A DNA stretch of 64,000 nucleotides, taken from the NCBI GenBank assembly GCA_049903315.1, contig JBNGBT010000012.1, positions 26,556 to 90,555 on the forward strand, written 5' to 3'. The stretch is from Candidatus Cloacimonadota bacterium (GTDB lineage: Bacteria; Cloacimonadota; Cloacimonadia; JGIOTU-2). Under the pieces are notes generated by a model that was not told the origin of the DNA, made no database searches, and was given only the letters and a program-made list of their open reading frames with translations. Of the stretch, positions 1 to 63,108 are shown in pieces (position 1 is the stretch's first letter; each line of letters begins with the position of its first letter). Both the position numbers and the translations under genes were made by a program.

Positions 1-318
1 AAATGTTCCACCTTCAGGATAGAAGGCTTTCATAAGCGTATATTGTTGAAAAGCTGGCGTTTGAGTGCTGTCATAATGCAGTTCGAAGACAACATTTTCA
101 GCATCCTCGAAGCACTGATCGAACCTTTGATCTAGTGGGTAGTCATTGTCTTGTAAAAAGTGGATCGAGCCCATAAGGTATACTGTATTGTTGTCCGATT
201 CGATTTTCCAGATGCAGACATTTTCGCTTTTCTGAACATCTTCTGCAAAAAGAAATCCAGTTATACCGATTATGAGGATAATTAAAAATAGGATGTTTTG
301 AAGGACTTTTTTATTCAT
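1..318 (-). CDS. TraB/GumN family protein, N-terminal part (runs off window start)
   Basis: Manual translation from ATG at 318: signal peptide, then CIWKIESDNNTVYLMGSIHFL...YPLDQRF...AENVVFE, typical of the TraB/GumN N-terminus. Confidence 0.75.
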   Translation of the reverse strand, partial: MNKKVLQNILFLIILIIGITGFLFAEDVQKSENVCIWKIESDNNTVYLMGSIHFLQDNDYPLDQRFDQCFEDAENVVFELHYDSTQTPAFQQYTLMKAFYPEGGTF

Positions 319-38138: not shown

Positions 38139-40352
38139 TCAGCGAAGCAGGGTCATCTTCCTCACCATAGCATGCCCATTATACTCTAACTTATACAAAT
38201 ACGTCCCGGGGGATACTTGCATACCTTGCTCGTCTGTGCCGTCCCACGTAATTCTGGTCTTTACCCAGAAATCGTTGGTTGTTCCATCGAACCGGCGGAT
38301 AAGCTGCCCTTTGGTGTTGTATATGGATAGCGTGTAATCTTCCACTCTGGTGTAGTCCGCAGTGATGAACAATATTTCCGTTTCATTTGTGAAAGGATTC
38401 GGCGTATTTTGAAAGAGATACAAATTATGAATAAAACTCGTATCCGGTTCATCCACGCTTACTGTATCCTGGCATTCATATGCACCTATGTCTATTCTCC
38501 CATTAAATATTCTCGGATTTCCAGCTAAGTCGGTTGCAGGAAGATGCAATCCCGTTGTATCCGGTGTGCCTGCATCGATACAGGGTGAATGAGTTGTGAG
38601 TTCATAACTGAACGGATTTCCTCCAACAAATAATGGATCTTCGTCAATGTTTCCGTCTCCCCAATATAATGTACCGTTATTATTTGTGTTTATTGCATCT
38701 ATCCCCCCTTCTATATTACAGTACTCGATATAAGCAGAATTGGGTTCATGTTGATAATGAAACCATATTTCTGTTACGGATTCGTTTCTAAGGATAGTAT
38801 TTATCATTTTTATATGTCCATCGTCAACTAAACTTATTGTACCTTGCGAACAATTGTCATTATCGCATATCGTGCAGTTAATGAGGTACATGAAATCATT
38901 TGGACTGCACATTTGGCGAATACCACTGGCAACATCACCGTAATTATCCGTTATTTCACAGTTTATCAATATTGGGTAACAATAATAATTTGAAGCTATC
39001 GCGCCGAAATGACTGTTTGCCGGATTTGTTTTATTTCCCCTCATAGTGCAGTTTATAAAAACCGGTTCTTGGAATGCTGAAAGATGAAATAATTTTGCGT
39101 TTACCTGGTCATATTCCGAGATAAAATTAACATTATAAAACATTATATTACTATTGCTAGAAATATAATTTATTGATAAATTATGAAATATATCATTATT
39201 TATAATAATCATATCTTTAAATTTAATATTTGAACAATAGTCCACACCGAGCCCCCCTGCTTGAAATCCATATCCATTTTGTATTGTAAAACCTTCCATA
39301 GAAAAATGATGAATATTGCGTAGTAGAATCATTTGATTTGTCTGTTCAGCATCGAGTATAGTGAATTCTTCACCTGCTCCCCTTAACGATATATGATCTT
39401 TCCCCCCAATAGAGAAGAATTCACTGGTTAGTGATGGTGAATATGTACCACTATTAACATAAATTGTATTTGGATTTGCGCTGTCTGATTTTACCATTAT
39501 TAATGCATGGTAGATATTCTGAAATGAGTTATTCCAATCCAAACCGCTGTTTGTATTATTTCCGTTAACCGAAACATAGACATCATCGTTTATTGGTTCT
39601 ATCTTTTGGTGAAGAATATCCATGGTAATATTGCCATCATTTGCATAAGCATAAAATTTATCTGGTTCCCTTACCGTAAACGTATCAACAAAAACAGTCA
39701 TGTCTTCTTCATAATTATAAATATCACTCCCTATAGGAGAATAATTCATATAAATATTACATAAATCTTGATGAGAGAAAGTAATTTCAGCATCATTTTG
39801 TTTGCATATTCCACCACCTTGAACTGATGAAAAGTTATTATGGATATTTGTACCTTTTAAGTACGTGTTCTGTGAAACACCAACATAAATCCCACCACCT
39901 GCTCCAGCAAAATTGTTTTTAATATTACATTTTTCAATTGTCATTGAAGCGCTATGTATATTAACACCTCCTCCAAAATGAGTATTATTGGTATAATAAC
40001 CGTTCCCGTGTTGAAGTGTCATTCCTACTATATATGCATTATTCTCATCTGAATTAACTAATACGCAACTTCCATTATTATTTCCATCTATTATTGTACT
40101 GTCGATATATGCTTCATCCCCTGTGGTGTAATATTTGCTGGCAACCGTAATATTCTTCCCACCATAATCAATATTCTCAAAATATGTTCCCGGATATACT
40201 AAAACAATATCTCCATCCTGTGTGTTATCAATCCCTTCTTGAATAGTCGTGTAATCTCCTGTGCCGTTTATATCAACAATGATCGTCGATGACCAAATAT
40301 GAAAAAAAGGCAGTATAATTAATATAATAGCTGTGAATAAATATTTCATCAT
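38139..40352 (-). CDS. Secreted beta-helix (pectin-lyase-like/Pmp-like) protein with CTD
   Basis: GDYTTIQEGI, PGTYFENI, GGGI repeats, SPCIDAG, DIGAYE; QNTPNPF CTD. Confidence 0.8.
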   Translation of the reverse strand: MMKYLFTAIILIILPFFHIWSSTIIVDINGTGDYTTIQEGIDNTQDGDIVLVYPGTYFENIDYGGKNITVASKYYTTGDEAYIDSTIIDGNNNGSCVLVNSDENNAYIVGMTLQHGNGYYTNNTHFGGGVNIHSASMTIEKCNIKNNFAGAGGGIYVGVSQNTYLKGTNIHNNFSSVQGGGICKQNDAEITFSHQDLCNIYMNYSPIGSDIYNYEEDMTVFVDTFTVREPDKFYAYANDGNITMDILHQKIEPINDDVYVSVNGNNTNSGLDWNNSFQNIYHALIMVKSDSANPNTIYVNSGTYSPSLTSEFFSIGGKDHISLRGAGEEFTILDAEQTNQMILLRNIHHFSMEGFTIQNGYGFQAGGLGVDYCSNIKFKDMIIINNDIFHNLSINYISSNSNIMFYNVNFISEYDQVNAKLFHLSAFQEPVFINCTMRGNKTNPANSHFGAIASNYYCYPILINCEITDNYGDVASGIRQMCSPNDFMYLINCTICDNDNCSQGTISLVDDGHIKMINTILRNESVTEIWFHYQHEPNSAYIEYCNIEGGIDAINTNNNGTLYWGDGNIDEDPLFVGGNPFSYELTTHSPCIDAGTPDTTGLHLPATDLAGNPRIFNGRIDIGAYECQDTVSVDEPDTSFIHNLYLFQNTPNPFTNETEILFITADYTRVEDYTLSIYNTKGQLIRRFDGTTNDFWVKTRITWDGTDEQGMQVSPGTYLYKLEYNGHAMVRKMTLLR

Positions 40353-40353
40353 T

Positions 40354-40397
40354 ACCTCACCCCCTGTACCCCTCTCCGAAAAATCAGAGAGGGGGTA
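40354..40397. repeat. GC-rich palindromic element between two secreted-protein genes
   Basis: ACCTCACCCCCTGTACCCCTCTCC...GAGAGGGGGTA; TACCCC-TCTC pairs with GAGAGGGGGTA. Confidence 0.65.
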
Positions 40398-40414
40398 GAG
40401 GATTTTATTAATTG

Positions 40415-42694
40415 TTATTTCATGAGTAACATCTTATGAACAGCGTTTTTATCATCTGAGGTGAGTTTATAGAAATAGATGCCGTTCTTTACCGCATTTC
40501 CATACCTGTCTCTACAATCCCACATGACCGAGTAATAGACATTCTTTGTTCCTGAGGAGATAATTTCATCACAATCGATCGATCGCACCAGTTGACCTCG
40601 AATGTTATAGATGTTCAACTCCGTATGTACAGCATTCTGTTCCGGCATGAATCTTATTGTTGTTGTATTCGTTCTCACGGGATTTGGATAATTTTGCAGT
40701 AGGGTAAGTTTGTTGATTACAGGGGTGTCTTTGGTGCTCAACTGAACATTCGCATAACCTTTATGCTCATAATAAAGTGGTTTTACACAAAAAGCTTGTG
40801 TGTCAGCATTCTTATAATCCCCGCAATATATTATAAACTCGAGGTTATTACCTCCGCTTTTCGATACTTCCGGTGTATAGGCAAGGATTTGCACTGGATA
40901 TTCATCGTCATACACTTTCGATGCTCCAAGGCACTCATCATCACAGTATACAGCAACTTCTATAACAGGATCTTCAGAATAAATAGTATCGATATCGATA
41001 GCCATGTAATCGACTGTCTCTGTATAGGTAAAGTATTCGGTTTTTTCCTTGACGTATGCTTCGACGCCTTTACTGCAACTCTCATTCCATACAAGCTGGC
41101 ACAAACTATCGACATAGATGATATATAATTCTCCCGGATTGGCTGTCCAATTCAAACCGGACATTCCTCCCTTGGAGAGATACCAATGTTCCGATCTCAC
41201 AGAAAGCCATTCATCTTCGATCGACTCCAGGGCATCCACTATGTGTATCGGCTCTTCAAGGAAGCAACCGATCCAGTTTGCCTGCTCGGGATACAATTGA
41301 ACTGGTGTACTCGGATCTAGCCATGTGCCTGAGATTCCTTGTGCGGGCATATAGTCACAACTGTCTATGAGCACAAATTTATACCCTTGCTTTGTTTCGA
41401 AATCACCTAAGTCATTTTTCCAATAATCAATATAATAATAAACAACTTGATCATCTTCAAAGAGTACATAATTGAGACTGTCTTCAGTTTGATAATCATC
41501 ATCAATAAGGTATTGCCTTTCAAGTACATCTATTGCATCCATCCATCCTTCGGTTGTTCTGTTCAGTACCGGGAACGAGATCCAGTCTATATTGTCATAT
41601 GAACCATAATCATAATCATCTTTGAAATAGTCATGTTCATTTGCAGGAATAGCTCCCATGTCAGCAGGGGTACCGTCATCATCTTCATACTCTTCATCGG
41701 GGTCACCGGTGTCTATACAAGGACTAAACACTTCTTTATCCCATAGTAACTTAAAATCACCGTTGGGTGCGTCATCGAACAATGGATCATCATCGATATT
41801 ACCCGTTCCGGGATATCCGTCTTCTATACAGGAATAGGTAACAGAAGGTGGTCCAATTATGTTTGAATGTGTATTACCCCATATAATCGAGTTCACTATA
41901 TCTTGATTTTGCCCATATGCAAAACTAACACCTTTATAGTTACCATAAATCGTACAGTTAATTATATCACAGTATCCTGCAATATCATAAATACCATATC
42001 CGCTGTTGCCATCAATATTATCATTAATTACACAATTTCTTATTGTTATTTCATGTCCACCATCTATTGAAATGCCTTTTGATGTGTTATCATTAATATT
42101 ACTATATTCGATTATAAGATCATACGGTGAATATGGATAGTGTTTTATACCAATTGAGTTTTGGTATACGTTGCATTTAGAAATTATAGATGTTGACTCA
42201 TTTTCATCAATATCTGATGTAATTAGAATACCAGTATCATTACCAAATATTTGGCAATTAGATATTTCAATATGATTTTCATTATTATTTACAGCCTTTA
42301 TTCCAATATCCATTCCCGAAATTGAACAATCATAAATTATTGAAGTTCCACTCAATTTATATATTCCATACCCATTCTGGGATGTATTCTCTATAATAAA
42401 ACCATATACATTAGCTCCATAGTAGTTTGTTATATATATAGTTGAATTGCCAGAACTTGTGATAGTCGGATATTGTGTTGCATATTTCATGAGAGTAATA
42501 TTCTTGTTAATTGTTACAACTTCCGTGTAAGTCCCGTATTTTACTTTAACTGAATCACCTGTCGAAGCTGCATTTATACCTGCCTGGATAGTTGTATAAT
42601 CACCACTGCCATTCCAGTCAACAATAATTGTATCAGCTAGTCCAATTGTTGTTATTAACAGCTGGAATGCTGTTATCAAAATTATTTTTTTCAT
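40415..42694 (-). CDS. Secreted beta-helix protein with CTD
   Basis: RBS AGGAG before ATG 42694; GDYTTIQAGI, Asn-rich coils, SPCIDTGDP, DMGA; QNYPNP CTD. Confidence 0.8.
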   Translation of the reverse strand: MKKIILITAFQLLITTIGLADTIIVDWNGSGDYTTIQAGINAASTGDSVKVKYGTYTEVVTINKNITLMKYATQYPTITSSGNSTIYITNYYGANVYGFIIENTSQNGYGIYKLSGTSIIYDCSISGMDIGIKAVNNNENHIEISNCQIFGNDTGILITSDIDENESTSIISKCNVYQNSIGIKHYPYSPYDLIIEYSNINDNTSKGISIDGGHEITIRNCVINDNIDGNSGYGIYDIAGYCDIINCTIYGNYKGVSFAYGQNQDIVNSIIWGNTHSNIIGPPSVTYSCIEDGYPGTGNIDDDPLFDDAPNGDFKLLWDKEVFSPCIDTGDPDEEYEDDDGTPADMGAIPANEHDYFKDDYDYGSYDNIDWISFPVLNRTTEGWMDAIDVLERQYLIDDDYQTEDSLNYVLFEDDQVVYYYIDYWKNDLGDFETKQGYKFVLIDSCDYMPAQGISGTWLDPSTPVQLYPEQANWIGCFLEEPIHIVDALESIEDEWLSVRSEHWYLSKGGMSGLNWTANPGELYIIYVDSLCQLVWNESCSKGVEAYVKEKTEYFTYTETVDYMAIDIDTIYSEDPVIEVAVYCDDECLGASKVYDDEYPVQILAYTPEVSKSGGNNLEFIIYCGDYKNADTQAFCVKPLYYEHKGYANVQLSTKDTPVINKLTLLQNYPNPVRTNTTTIRFMPEQNAVHTELNIYNIRGQLVRSIDCDEIISSGTKNVYYSVMWDCRDRYGNAVKNGIYFYKLTSDDKNAVHKMLLMK

Positions 42695-42795
42695 TTTTCT
42701 CCTTGTTTTCTGTGAATACATTAACTCTTAAAAGAGCAACCCATAATACATATCCCACAACATCATATTCATTCTAATCTTATCCAGTTGAATAC

Positions 42796-43071
42796 TCATA
42801 TTCCTTGCACCCCACTATTCCCGGGAAACGGAATAGTAAGGTAGGAATTAAGGAATTTATTTTTCCCGAGAATTGATAATGTTGTATTTGTGTTGTATTT
42901 TTCATTGTTAAAATATATTTTGTTATAGTAACTTGCATAATATACGTCAGTTACCAAATTCAAATGGGGGGGGGGGGGTAAGTCCTCCCAAAATATTTTT
43001 CCAATTATCTTTTGTTGCCATCATATTTTTTCCTTTGAATAGATTGGTGAGAATTGCAATTTGCTTGTCAA
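42796..43071 (-). promoter_or_regulatory. Leader with TTGACA box, poly-C13 leader ORF and hairpin (copy 1)
   Basis: TTGACA at 43071-43066; RBS AAAGG; ORF MMATKDNWKNILGGLTPPPPFEFGN* at 43024-42947; G13 at 42966-42978; hairpin 42810-42841. Confidence 0.7.
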
Positions 43072-60255: not shown

Positions 60256-60512
60256 TTGACATAAATTATTTTATTTATTGCTTTCTACAAAAGGTTTATT
60301 ATGGAAAAGAAAAATAAATTCGGGTTTTTTATACATTACACTATTCTCTTACCCCCCCCCCTATGCCATAAGGTACATATTTGGCGTAAGTTATGAAAAT
60401 TCTAATAGGAATTATAGACCTGAATACAAAGAACATTTTACAACAAATATCGTTTGCAAAAATAAGTTTACATAACCATTCCCTGTCTGTGAAGTTCCCG
60501 AAGCAGGCAGGG
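60256..60512 (+). promoter_or_regulatory. Leader with TTGACA box, poly-C10 leader ORF and hairpin (copy 2)
   Basis: TTGACA 60256-60261; RBS AAAGG; ORF from 60301 MEKKNKFGFFIHYTILLPPPLCHKVHIWRKL*; C10 at 60352-60361; hairpin 60481-60512. Confidence 0.7.
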
Positions 60513-60657
60513 TATTCGTGAGGTTTTTCCTTCTATGATTAAAGCTGTGGGTAGAAAATGAGACGGGGGAACTAACTTCTTATATTGTAGTTTAAAAGAC
60601 TCTAGGATATAAGAAGGACATTCTCACTGGGGTAAATTAAAAGAATTAGGAGATAAA

Positions 60658-60990
60658 ATGATAAAAAAAATTGCAATAATCGCAATATTAGCGACAATTC
60701 TCATTGGTGGAAATTTATTTGCTGGTGATAAAGATCCGCTTATTATACATGTAGTTGCACAACAAGAAGTTGACTGGGAACTTAGGATATGGGATGGAGT
60801 ACAGTTTCCATGGAAAATACCAGGTTATGGAACGATGGATAAAAATGCAGATGGTTGTCAGGGTGATTATTATCAAATGTGGGCTTTAGATGAAACGGTC
60901 TTAGTTGAATCTGGATATCTACCTAATTCAGACTGGTTTGAAATTGTTATACCATTGACTGTACCGGGCGAAGAAGATCCGGAACAATAA
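60658..60990 (+). CDS. Small secreted hypothetical protein
   Basis: RBS AGGAG; signal peptide; followed by hairpin ATGGGTGGAG/CTCCACCCAT. Confidence 0.65.
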   Translation: MIKKIAIIAILATILIGGNLFAGDKDPLIIHVVAQQEVDWELRIWDGVQFPWKIPGYGTMDKNADGCQGDYYQMWALDETVLVESGYLPNSDWFEIVIPLTVPGEEDPEQ

Positions 60991-61051: not shown

Positions 61052-63108
61052 ATGAAATATAAATTAACATTAATTTGCATTATAATGCTATTATTTCAAA
61101 TAAGATGTTTTGCACAGAACCCGACACTCGAAAAAATTGTTGAATACCCAACAGGCGGCGTTTATTTGGAAAAGGACAATCTATGTGTACAAGATAACTA
61201 TCTCTTTGCAGCTTCGAGTTATGGACTTGAAATTTACGAGGTTGAAGAGGATGAGCAGGCACAGCTTATAAGCAGATTACCTCTCCGTGATGACGCGAGA
61301 ACGATAGCAATAAAGGATCAGTACGCCTATGTTCAAGCAGTATCTTATTATGAGAATCACACAAATCTATATCAAATCGATATTTCAGATATTAACAATC
61401 CATATATTGCGGATAGTGTCTTTACAAACGATGAAAACGGTTTTGGGCAGGGAGATATTTATAATGATTTTATAATGTTTAGAAATTATGACATAGACTA
61501 TAATTTCTATTACAGTATTTACAGAATACCCGAATTTGAATTTGTTCAAAATTACTATTGTAGTAATCATTTCATACAACTTAATGATAGTCTTGCATTG
61601 TATAGATACAATGGGAACATATTCACTCTTTATGATTTCAGCGACCTGGAAAACATTACTGAAATAGGACAAGTTGACTTAACAGCCGGAGGTATCCCTA
61701 TAGATGAAATTCAAGCTGTTAATGATTCAATAATTGCATGTATTGATTTTGAAGGAATTGCTTTCTGGAATTATTCAGACAATAGAAGCTGGCAATATCT
61801 TTCAACAATTTATTCACCTTCAAATGAAAATTGGTCAGGTAAGATCTATGCAGTAGATGACTTTATATTTGTAAGTTATTCATCTAACAACCCAGGGATG
61901 AAGTGTATAAATATTACAGATATCTACAATCCTTATATAGTAGATTCAATACTTCTAAATCCATATTGGTATTATATGACAGGATCTCCAATTGTTGGAG
62001 CATCAAACTCAGCATTTATAGGAACCTATCAAAAGATACATCAGTTTAATTTTGATAATGGTTATTTTGAAGAACAGTATGATATCTATTCAAACTATCT
62101 TCAAAGAGGAGGGGTAATTTATGAGAATTATTTATTTGTCTCTTATGTATATGGCTTGAAAATATATGATATTTCGACACTCCCTGATATTATCTTCATT
62201 GATTCAATGTATGATGAGGTTGAAACTACTACTCTTTTTTTAAGAGATAATTTATTATTCTTTGTTGATTTTACTAACTATAAAATTATCGTATTAGATA
62301 TATCAACACCAGAAACACCTTTGTTAAGAAATGAAATACCGATACCAATGTCAAATGGTGACTTGTTGATTGATGAAGAATATGAGTCGATATATTATAA
62401 AGAACATTATCCTGGTAACACATTAATAAAATACAGTATACCTGAACCAAACGATTATACAGTAGATTTTCAATATAATTTAGGTTGTACGGGCAATGGT
62501 TTTATTTATAATGATCATTTTTATTATTTAGCAGGGAATAATACAAATGGACCTGACCTACAAATATATGGAGAACTTGAAGAAAATAATCCTGAATTGA
62601 TATATACTATAACAGATTTTGCAGAAGGATATATGGATTATCCAAATGCTTACATAATATCGAAAATGCATCGGGAATGATAGAACCAATCGCTGATTAC
62701 AGTGACTATGGGTTTTCACAATATTGTATAATCAATGAAAGTAACGAGAATAAATATCTCTATCATTTTCAAGGCCCGGGATTTTCTATTTATGAAATAG
62801 AGGGATATGGCACTGATCCCGAACCGGAATTTCCCGAGCAATATTTTACCATCTACCCCAATCCATTTTCTAATACGATAACATTCTCATTTAAAAACAA
62901 AAATTTTTGTGAATTTTCAAAAATAAGAATTTATAATGTAAAAGGACAATTAGTCCGTGCATTGCGCTTTGACGCTTCTTCGCCACTTCACTCTATCAAA
63001 GTAAGTTGGGATGGAAAGGATGAGTATGGCAATGATGTAAAAAGCGGAGTATATTTTTATAAAATTGATAATGATGATGACCATATTGGGAAGGTAGTGA
63101 AGTTATAG
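61052..63108 (+). pseudogene. LVIVD-repeat secreted protein with CTD, split into two frames (61052-62680 and 62677-63108)
   Basis: Signal peptide and (L/I)xIxDIS repeats in ORF1; CTD only in ORF2, which has no signal peptide; frame change near 62655. Confidence 0.65.

Follow-up and report, generated by a model that had tools for sequence, protein, structure and literature searches.

Homopolymeric G or C tracts situated within genes act as contingency loci. A repeat tract may also be placed in a leader: in the S. gallolyticus loci pil1 and pil3, according to the parts of the report that deal with this leader, the number of repeats decides whether the leader peptide reaches a terminator, and pil1 leaders ending just upstream of the terminator or running through it give high expression (PMC3894217). 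In a second type of attenuator, represented by E. coli tnaC and speFL, a stalled ribosome shields the leader RNA against Rho, and the portion of the same source available to us gives Rho-linked phase variation only for invertible DNA and for one case involving CsrA (PMC12360218). In Neisseria, as far as the consulted part of the account goes, surface genes are controlled by slipped-strand changes in the length of a C/G run, such as the poly-C run of the opc promoter (PMC13742949).

The leader element described here, found in Cloacimonadota and Bacteroidota, shares with pil1/pil3 (in the aspects covered by the accessible sections of PMC3894217) a simple repeat inside a leader ORF that precedes surface-protein genes, a reading frame that decides whether ribosomes arrive at a stem-loop, a long leader ending just before or beyond the hairpin, and a low state that is in the majority. 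It differs in that its repeat is a run of C instead of GCAGA units, with one ON phase in three where the same sections give two for pil1, in that its leader carries a motif conserved at the amino-acid level and also exists in tract-free versions, in that its hairpin often lacks a U-tail and is accompanied by pairing of the loop with a downstream segment, and in its occurrence at dozens of loci in two other phyla. By analogy, we regard the element as one that works like pil1, and not as its homologue. The original prediction had presented it as a candidate undescribed switch, which is too strong a term, because the pil1/pil3 attenuator follows the same logic (PMC3894217). With tnaC and speFL, in so far as they are covered by the available text of PMC12360218, the element shares the presence of Rho, a spacer richer in C than in G and a translating or stalled leader ribosome that is proposed here to shield the RNA and permit read-through; leader residues conserved at the amino-acid level are a further likeness to this type. 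In those leaders a metabolite causes stalling at the stop codon and there is no repeat tract, whereas in the present element the stop lies 1-25 or more codons past the motif. Unlike in-gene tracts, the poly-C run lies outside the regulated gene, and unlike the opc tract it is not placed between the hexamers of a promoter. The literature searched, outside which most subscription papers lie, yielded no paper on this element or on the G-K-N-K-F motif. Compared with the original prediction, the conserved G-K-N-K-F motif, the predicted loop-downstream pairing and the spread into Bacteroidota are new.

The window, i.e. the whole stretch of DNA analysed, comprises 64,000 nucleotides of a Candidatus Cloacimonadota genome. 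The layout proposed earlier for the first copy of the element (TTGACA, AAAGG, ATG, C13, frames and hairpin) was recovered in full on its minus strand, ahead of two large secreted-protein genes:

43071-43066 (-): putative -35 hexamer TTGACA, about 40 nt upstream of the leader ATG
43036-43032 (-): Shine-Dalgarno-like AAAGG of the leader
43024-42947 (-): leader ORF as assembled (C13), ATG at 43024, stop at 42949-42947, 25 aa; short leader, predicted OFF
42978-42966 (-): C13 tract, the frame switch; 6-13 nucleotides long in homologues
42874..42965 (-): spacer with one stop-free frame, an unconserved peptide and more C than G
42853..42873 (-): codons for I-L-G-K-N-K-F, conserved at the amino-acid level; candidate ribosome pause or arrest motif
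42842-42809 (-): hairpin P1, 13 bp including the closing A-U pair, loop GUUUCCCG, ending UUUCCCG; no U-tail
42798-42796 (-): stop codon of the long frame, overlapping the ATG of the second small ORF
42799-42728 (-): second small ORF, 23 aa
42750..42758 (-): UGGGA segment, predicted partner of the P1 loop (pseudoknot; alignment column pair 46-112)
40415..42721 (-): secreted beta-helix protein with a FlgD/Por-type C-terminal domain, likely start at 42694 behind AGGAG
38139..40352 (-): second secreted protein with a FlgD/CHU_C-type C-terminal domain, after a 62-nt gap

TTGACA is found at a similar distance from the leader ATG in most copies of both subfamilies (A and B, see below); in copy 1 the -10 hexamer is non-consensus, and a promoter scan made no call at this site. 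With one extra C the copy 1 frame meets a stop after one codon, while with one C fewer it has 56 open codons and runs through the hairpin. The C13 leader of 25 aa thus represents the short-leader state that had been expected of the assembly. The two large downstream genes, likewise foreseen, encode beta-helix proteins with FlgD/Por-type C-terminal sorting domains and are probably co-transcribed. A G/C-rich hairpin lies between them (40353-40414, minus strand), adjoining the ribosome-binding site of the second gene, and a similar one is located between paralogues at another locus (L274). Two other features near copy 1 were rejected as relevant: a divergent nusB gene, which is absent beside the other four copies, and the segment TGCTCTTT, presumably boxA-like, which varies among copies.

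The C13 tract is the longest G/C homopolymer of the 2.96-Mb genome, in which 7 G/C runs of at least 10 are observed against 0.49 expected (0.004 for runs of at least 13); genome-wide, the cassette holds 4 of these 7 and 5 of the 18 runs of at least 8. The genome contains five tract-bearing copies, with 13, 10, 11, 8 and 10 C, all of them assembled in short-leader states. A sixth copy (G000 C33:266.9k) is tract-free with an in-frame leader of 47 residues, and of a seventh only the promoter and leader remain. These copies are 70-84% alike and accompany paralogous genes. Copy 2 represents subfamily B, which aligns with subfamily A (copy 1) across the motif, the hairpin and the downstream GGGA:

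60256..60660 (+): copy 2, subfamily B, with TTGACA at 60256 and ATG at 60301
60352-60361 (+): C10 tract, short-leader state
60452-60475 (+): codons for V-C-K-N-K-F-T and the stop
60481-60512 (+): hairpin, with the loop partner at 60566-60573
60576-60633 (+): second pseudoknot, followed by a 110-aa gene with a signal peptide

The gene that follows this small ORF (61052-63108, plus strand) is seemingly split into a 542-aa ORF and an overlapping 143-aa ORF, the latter carrying the C-terminal sorting domain, with no long homopolymer at the junction. Similarly, the gene behind the C8 copy (L223, G000 C66:174237-176068) occupies two overlapping frames of 346 and 286 aa, and its homologue at L057 is a single 625-aa ORF. 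The genome encodes Rho, EF-P, MutS, RNase E/G and RNase Y; an RNase J C-terminal domain was not found in it. It was also noted that a second NusG-family gene (181 aa, L102:1183-1728, minus strand), which we take to resemble UpxY/RfaH-type antiterminators, is the first gene of a polysaccharide cluster; as it has no tract in its vicinity and no link was shown, it was rejected as a partner of the element.

The original prediction held that relatives keep one frame open up to the hairpin. Profiles scored 69 loci, of which 58 were parsed into 36 distinct elements (seven loci were dropped as parsing failures and four for lack of a hairpin). Between the tract and the motif, the K-N-K-F frame stays open in 17 of 18 elements of subfamily A and 17 of 18 of subfamily B, the other frames in 0-1 of 18; in an exceptional element (L088) an indel has shifted the open frame, which still reaches the hairpin. 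A wider count covered 75 tract-bearing elements from Cloacimonadota and Bacteroidota and left out nine closed-frame hits (eight of gut-type Bacteroidales/Lentimicrobiaceae and one of Patescibacteria), the related gut-type loci L411, L413, L414 and L418, loci L324 and L405, and nine pattern hits from other phyla. Within this scope the frame is open in 65 of 66 lineages at 90% identity and in 34 of 34 at 70% (6.5 and 3.4 expected from shuffles), and the claim also holds among lineages of less than 60% identity, with 22 of 22 open against 2.3 expected, a second frame being open as well in 7 of these 22. The nine closed-frame hits come from a search with 29 hits, and the frame is open in no more than the other 20. 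Of the eight gut-type hits with a closed frame, seven still have a shorter internal leader whose last residues, I-L-G-K-N-K-F, precede a T-run hairpin. Several gut-type Bacteroidales leaders (L398, L404, L413, L414 and L418) combine the C run with variable A/T runs and a possible internal Bacteroidota-type promoter; one of them (L413) comes from a bin labelled Faecalimonas and has perhaps been mis-binned.

The open frame ends in two hydrophobic residues followed by G/C-K-N-K-F, and it is the amino-acid sequence that is conserved. The last six codons have a pN/pS of 0.20 in subfamily A and 0.10 in B, compared with 0.75 and 0.86 for the spacer, in a set partly found with patterns that favour synonymous variants. 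Among 24 copies found without the motif, minor alleles in K-N-K-F number 0, 1 and 17 at codon positions 1, 2 and 3. Five distant copies, also found without it, read G-K-N-K-F, G-N-W-K-L, G-I-W-K-L, G-R-Y-K-F and G-K-C-K-F; since they vary outside K-F/L, the latter is considered the core of the motif. The distance from the F codon to the start of the hairpin is 10-13 nt in all 67 family-level elements (search window 10-14) and 9-13 nt in 16 of 18 more distant copies from Cloacimonadota. The stop follows one codon past the motif in subfamily B and 13-20 codons past it in A. Genome-wide, N-K-F codons followed by any hairpin are not enriched (17/866, with controls of 11/530 and 16/1245). Macrolide-dependent stalling occurs at R/K-x-R/K; a motif of this type fits K-N-K, but not the copies in which N-K-F is preceded by T, E, M, V or I. 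Also discarded was a -1 slippery heptamer, either at the motif or upstream of the second pseudoknot, which is unconserved and wrongly spaced. Four loci of distant Cloacimonadota (L063, L064, L065 and L073) have tract leaders that end in N-R-F-T-stop or pass E-F before a hairpin, and are possible diverged members of the family.

The copy 1 hairpin folds with -28.5 kcal/mol (z -3.8) on the minus strand and -20.9 kcal/mol (z -2.4) on the other, in agreement with the proposed preference for the minus strand; the structure of the whole 341-nt copy 1 leader is not unusual (z -1.6). P1 is paired in 98.8% of alignment cells in both subfamilies, although this control and those below are flattering, because the structures were derived from the same alignments. 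The changes are mostly one-sided and G-U-compatible, with one doubly changed pair per subfamily; more diverged copies alter both arms of the stem. The P1 loop pairs with a GGGA located 52-66 alignment columns past the stem (92.5% paired in B, 80.3% in A). At column pair 46-112, between the P1 loop and UGGGA, UA occurs 8 times, GU 6 and GC 3, with 2 unpaired, and one loop-GGGA pair of subfamily B is G-C in 8 copies and U-A in 7. Subfamily B has a second pseudoknot upstream of the ribosome-binding site of the gene. The 8-nt tail has at least 5 T in 12 of the 45 copies with a tract and in 9 of the 22 whose tract is short or missing; P1 is followed by a U-run in L230, L231, L256, L272 and the gut-type Bacteroidales leaders, and several homologous hairpins are canonical terminators, whereas copy 1 lacks the U-tail. 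C exceeds G in the spacer of 64 of 75 elements, and the region past P1 is C-poor. No Rfam family reached its gathering score in the window, and 12 loci gave four sub-threshold hits only, to unrelated families (E up to 5). One locus (L204) joins a subfamily B leader to a subfamily A hairpin, a chimera that suggests exchange of modules.

Several loci differ in tract length. Between L126 (C9) and L136 (C10), and between L197 (C11) and L268 (C12), there are no mismatches in the 500-nt flanks, and between L050 (C11) and L163 (C10) there is one; L140 has 10 C and L270 has 6, with six upstream mismatches. By frame arithmetic, the change flips the leader between long and short in three of these four pairs, where homopolymer errors possibly lie behind the differences, since the sequences are assemblies. 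For this strain, contigs of two sequencing runs (X1, which may be the window's own source, and X5) span both window tracts with unchanged lengths, and those of a third (X12) break at both, through heterogeneity or sequencing error; run X14 represents a diverged relative and is uninformative about the strain's tract lengths, and the fraction of sequence words present in the one RNA run is 0.06. A start could be assigned in 66 elements, of which 11 are in frame, 27 are displaced by one base and 28 by two, so that no fixed ribosomal shift could serve all of them; in-frame states are under-represented (binomial p 0.002, kin being not independent). Since lengths differ at identical flanks and all three phases occur, the data argue for phase variation and against a fixed frameshift. 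The phase-variation reading of the original prediction is therefore supported, at the level of sequence comparison, by the open frame, by tract differences at identical flanks and by the short-leader assembled state. Where the run has eroded to C3-C5, three of four copies are in the short-leader state, two of them before an intact-looking gene. Among the 16 tract-free copies, an ATG in frame with the motif is present in 15 (0 and 2 for the other frames), and their shortest leaders have 9-10 residues; because they keep this ATG, the long frame appears to be the default and the tract an added gate. At another locus (L072, G174:C508) a C18 run in a leader-like ORF is followed by an assembly gap, a second long C run and a secreted gene, perhaps a mis-scaffolded variable tract.

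The tract plus motif pattern was found in 17 of 232 Cloacimonadota genomes, from five families, and its reversed control in none. Two patterns, run against 185,579 species genomes, matched 39 and 32 loci, those of the second nearly all in Cloacimonadota or Bacteroidota; nine of the 39, in other phyla, have no frame or hairpin and were treated as chance. Twelve Bacteroidota elements have the ATG, tract, open frame and motif, with a clear hairpin in ten and a weak one in two Draconibacterium copies. The spread within Bacteroidia is patchy, because only one of 401 sampled genomes of the class, the centre genome, gave a match. In 151 genomes a covariance model gave no hit beyond the home family, although motif patterns did. 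Close homologues occur in records of Ca. Cloacimonadota, including Ca. Celaenobacter antarcticus, whose record matches a locus of a genome from the genus of the window organism; the part of PMC8542988 that describes such organisms presents them as anaerobes with secreted hydrolases and mentions no such leader. An identical element and downstream gene start is shared by genomes of two families (L051 in G213, L071 in G174), through either binning contamination or recent transfer. A metagenome scan gave 118 matches, of which 29 were scored by the family profiles; the rest were put down to chance or to an unrelated repeat. A short repeat unrelated to the element, which has inverted ends and a C run of variable length with an A run behind it (L105, L106, L108 and others), recurs in many metagenome contigs, and a CRISPR-like array with a C7 run in its repeat was seen at L027.

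A next ORF was found for 83 elements, and in 82 of them its start resembles a signal peptide; for 14 more elements no such ORF was found. Pfam searches of 50 such genes gave beta-helix, C10, C25 and S8 peptidase, FG-GAP and beta-barrel families, and 22 had no family. The main gene starts 82-264 nt past the motif, behind its own ribosome-binding site.

We consider it somewhat more probable than not, from sequence comparison, that the element is a phase-variable, ribosome-dependent attenuator upstream of secreted-protein genes, with the long leader as ON and the short one as OFF. Replication slippage would alter the length of the poly-C run, as the differences between assemblies suggest. In two of the three phases the leader would stop soon past the tract, leaving the downstream RNA free of ribosomes, and P1 would form. 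Transcription would then end ahead of the genes, by intrinsic termination where there is a U-tail and probably with the assistance of Rho, whose involvement is possible, in copies without one, such as copy 1. In the third phase the ribosome would reach G-K-N-K-F, 10-13 nt before P1, probably dwell there, and then stop on the base of P1 (subfamily B) or traverse it (subfamily A). A ribosome at or in P1 would block termination, turning the genes ON; the frame and the geometry are observed features of the elements, and antitermination is their proposed consequence. Copies 1 (C13) and 2 (C10) are assembled in what would be the OFF state. Several observations speak against this model, among them the missing U-tail of copy 1, the three eroded-tract copies in the short-leader state, the unchanged tracts of the strain in two runs, the closed frames of some gut-type hits and the lack of enrichment of N-K-F codons with a hairpin. 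More tentatively, and with rather less than even confidence, we propose that the two hydrophobic residues and G-K-N-K-F form a new peptide that arrests or pauses the ribosome and lies at a constant distance from the hairpin behind it, defining an attenuator family that crosses phyla (Cloacimonadota and Bacteroidota), in which the poly-C run would be a stochastic gate in series.

Other explanations deserve attention. The polarity of the same switch may be reversed or conditional: a ribosome stalled at K-N-K-F short of P1 would let the hairpin form (OFF), and the long frame would be a signal-dependent state. The spacing of 10-13 nt would place the ribosome edge at the base of P1, where one or two codons could flip the outcome, and some eroded-tract copies are in the short-leader state before intact genes. 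This is nevertheless unlikely, given that 15 of 16 tract-free copies keep the long frame, ahead of intact secreted genes, and that pil1 leaders ending just upstream of the stem-loop or passing through it give high expression in the part of PMC3894217 concerned. Next in probability, and unlikely too, is an effect on RNA stability, in which the ribosome would shield an A/U-rich endonuclease site before P1, and P1 with its pseudoknot would stabilise the RNA instead of terminating it. In favour of it are the genes for RNase E/G and RNase Y, the richness of the motif codons in A and U, the loop-downstream pairing, which is possible only in read-through RNA, and the missing U-tail of copy 1; the codon-like variation of the motif, however, is not what a nuclease site predicts, the RNase J C-terminal domain was not found, and several homologous hairpins are canonical terminators. 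We regard as still less probable a translational coupling, by which the long leader would melt P1, make a G-rich ribosome-binding site on the 3' side of the stem accessible and pass ribosomes via the second small ORF to the main gene. This would account for the frequent overlap of the long stop with an ATG in subfamily A and for the GUGAGG/GUGGGG of the 3' arm, but subfamily B stops before P1 without such an overlap, indels break the second ORF among A copies, and the main gene, 82-264 nt past the motif, has its own ribosome-binding site.

The original prediction had also allowed for a programmed +1 frameshift and for polyproline translation dependent on EF-P. A ribosomal shift of this kind, transcriptional slippage or EF-P/polyproline sensing at a tract of fixed length would agree with a tract of 2-4 proline codons, with the encoded EF-P, with the dominance of out-of-frame states (55 of 66) and with the equal tract lengths of the strain in two studies. 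Neither branch is supported, and we judge this explanation quite improbable: all three phases are present, the two out-of-frame classes (27 and 28 elements) could not both be rescued by the same shift, identical loci have tracts of unequal length, and a proline run is absent from tract-free copies. Low-level slippage may still be a source of basal expression. Finally, that the promoter and leader are a passively copied cassette with no regulatory role is hardly credible; copies within the genome are indeed 70-84% alike and travel with paralogous genes, but the open frame, motif and hairpin spacing persist in unalignable lineages of two phyla, and the survey of open-frame lineages and the tract and selection comparison have already largely refuted it.

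Returning to the attenuator with a long-leader ON state, in the literature found leader-peptide phase variation has experimental proof only for the S. gallolyticus pili, and the same logic would operate here at dozens of loci of uncultured bacteria from marine, lake and gut habitats. If the arrest-peptide reading is true, phase variation would be placed in series with a nascent-peptide sensor, and each gene would require a suitable tract length together with a suitable stalling condition; since leaders may be as short as 9-10 residues, the seven-residue motif offers a cheap and direct test of arrest. Annotation pipelines do not see such switches, which would mislead any prediction of the secreted enzymes that these organisms express. 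The family would let a cell toggle several secreted proteins independently of one another, without mutating them.
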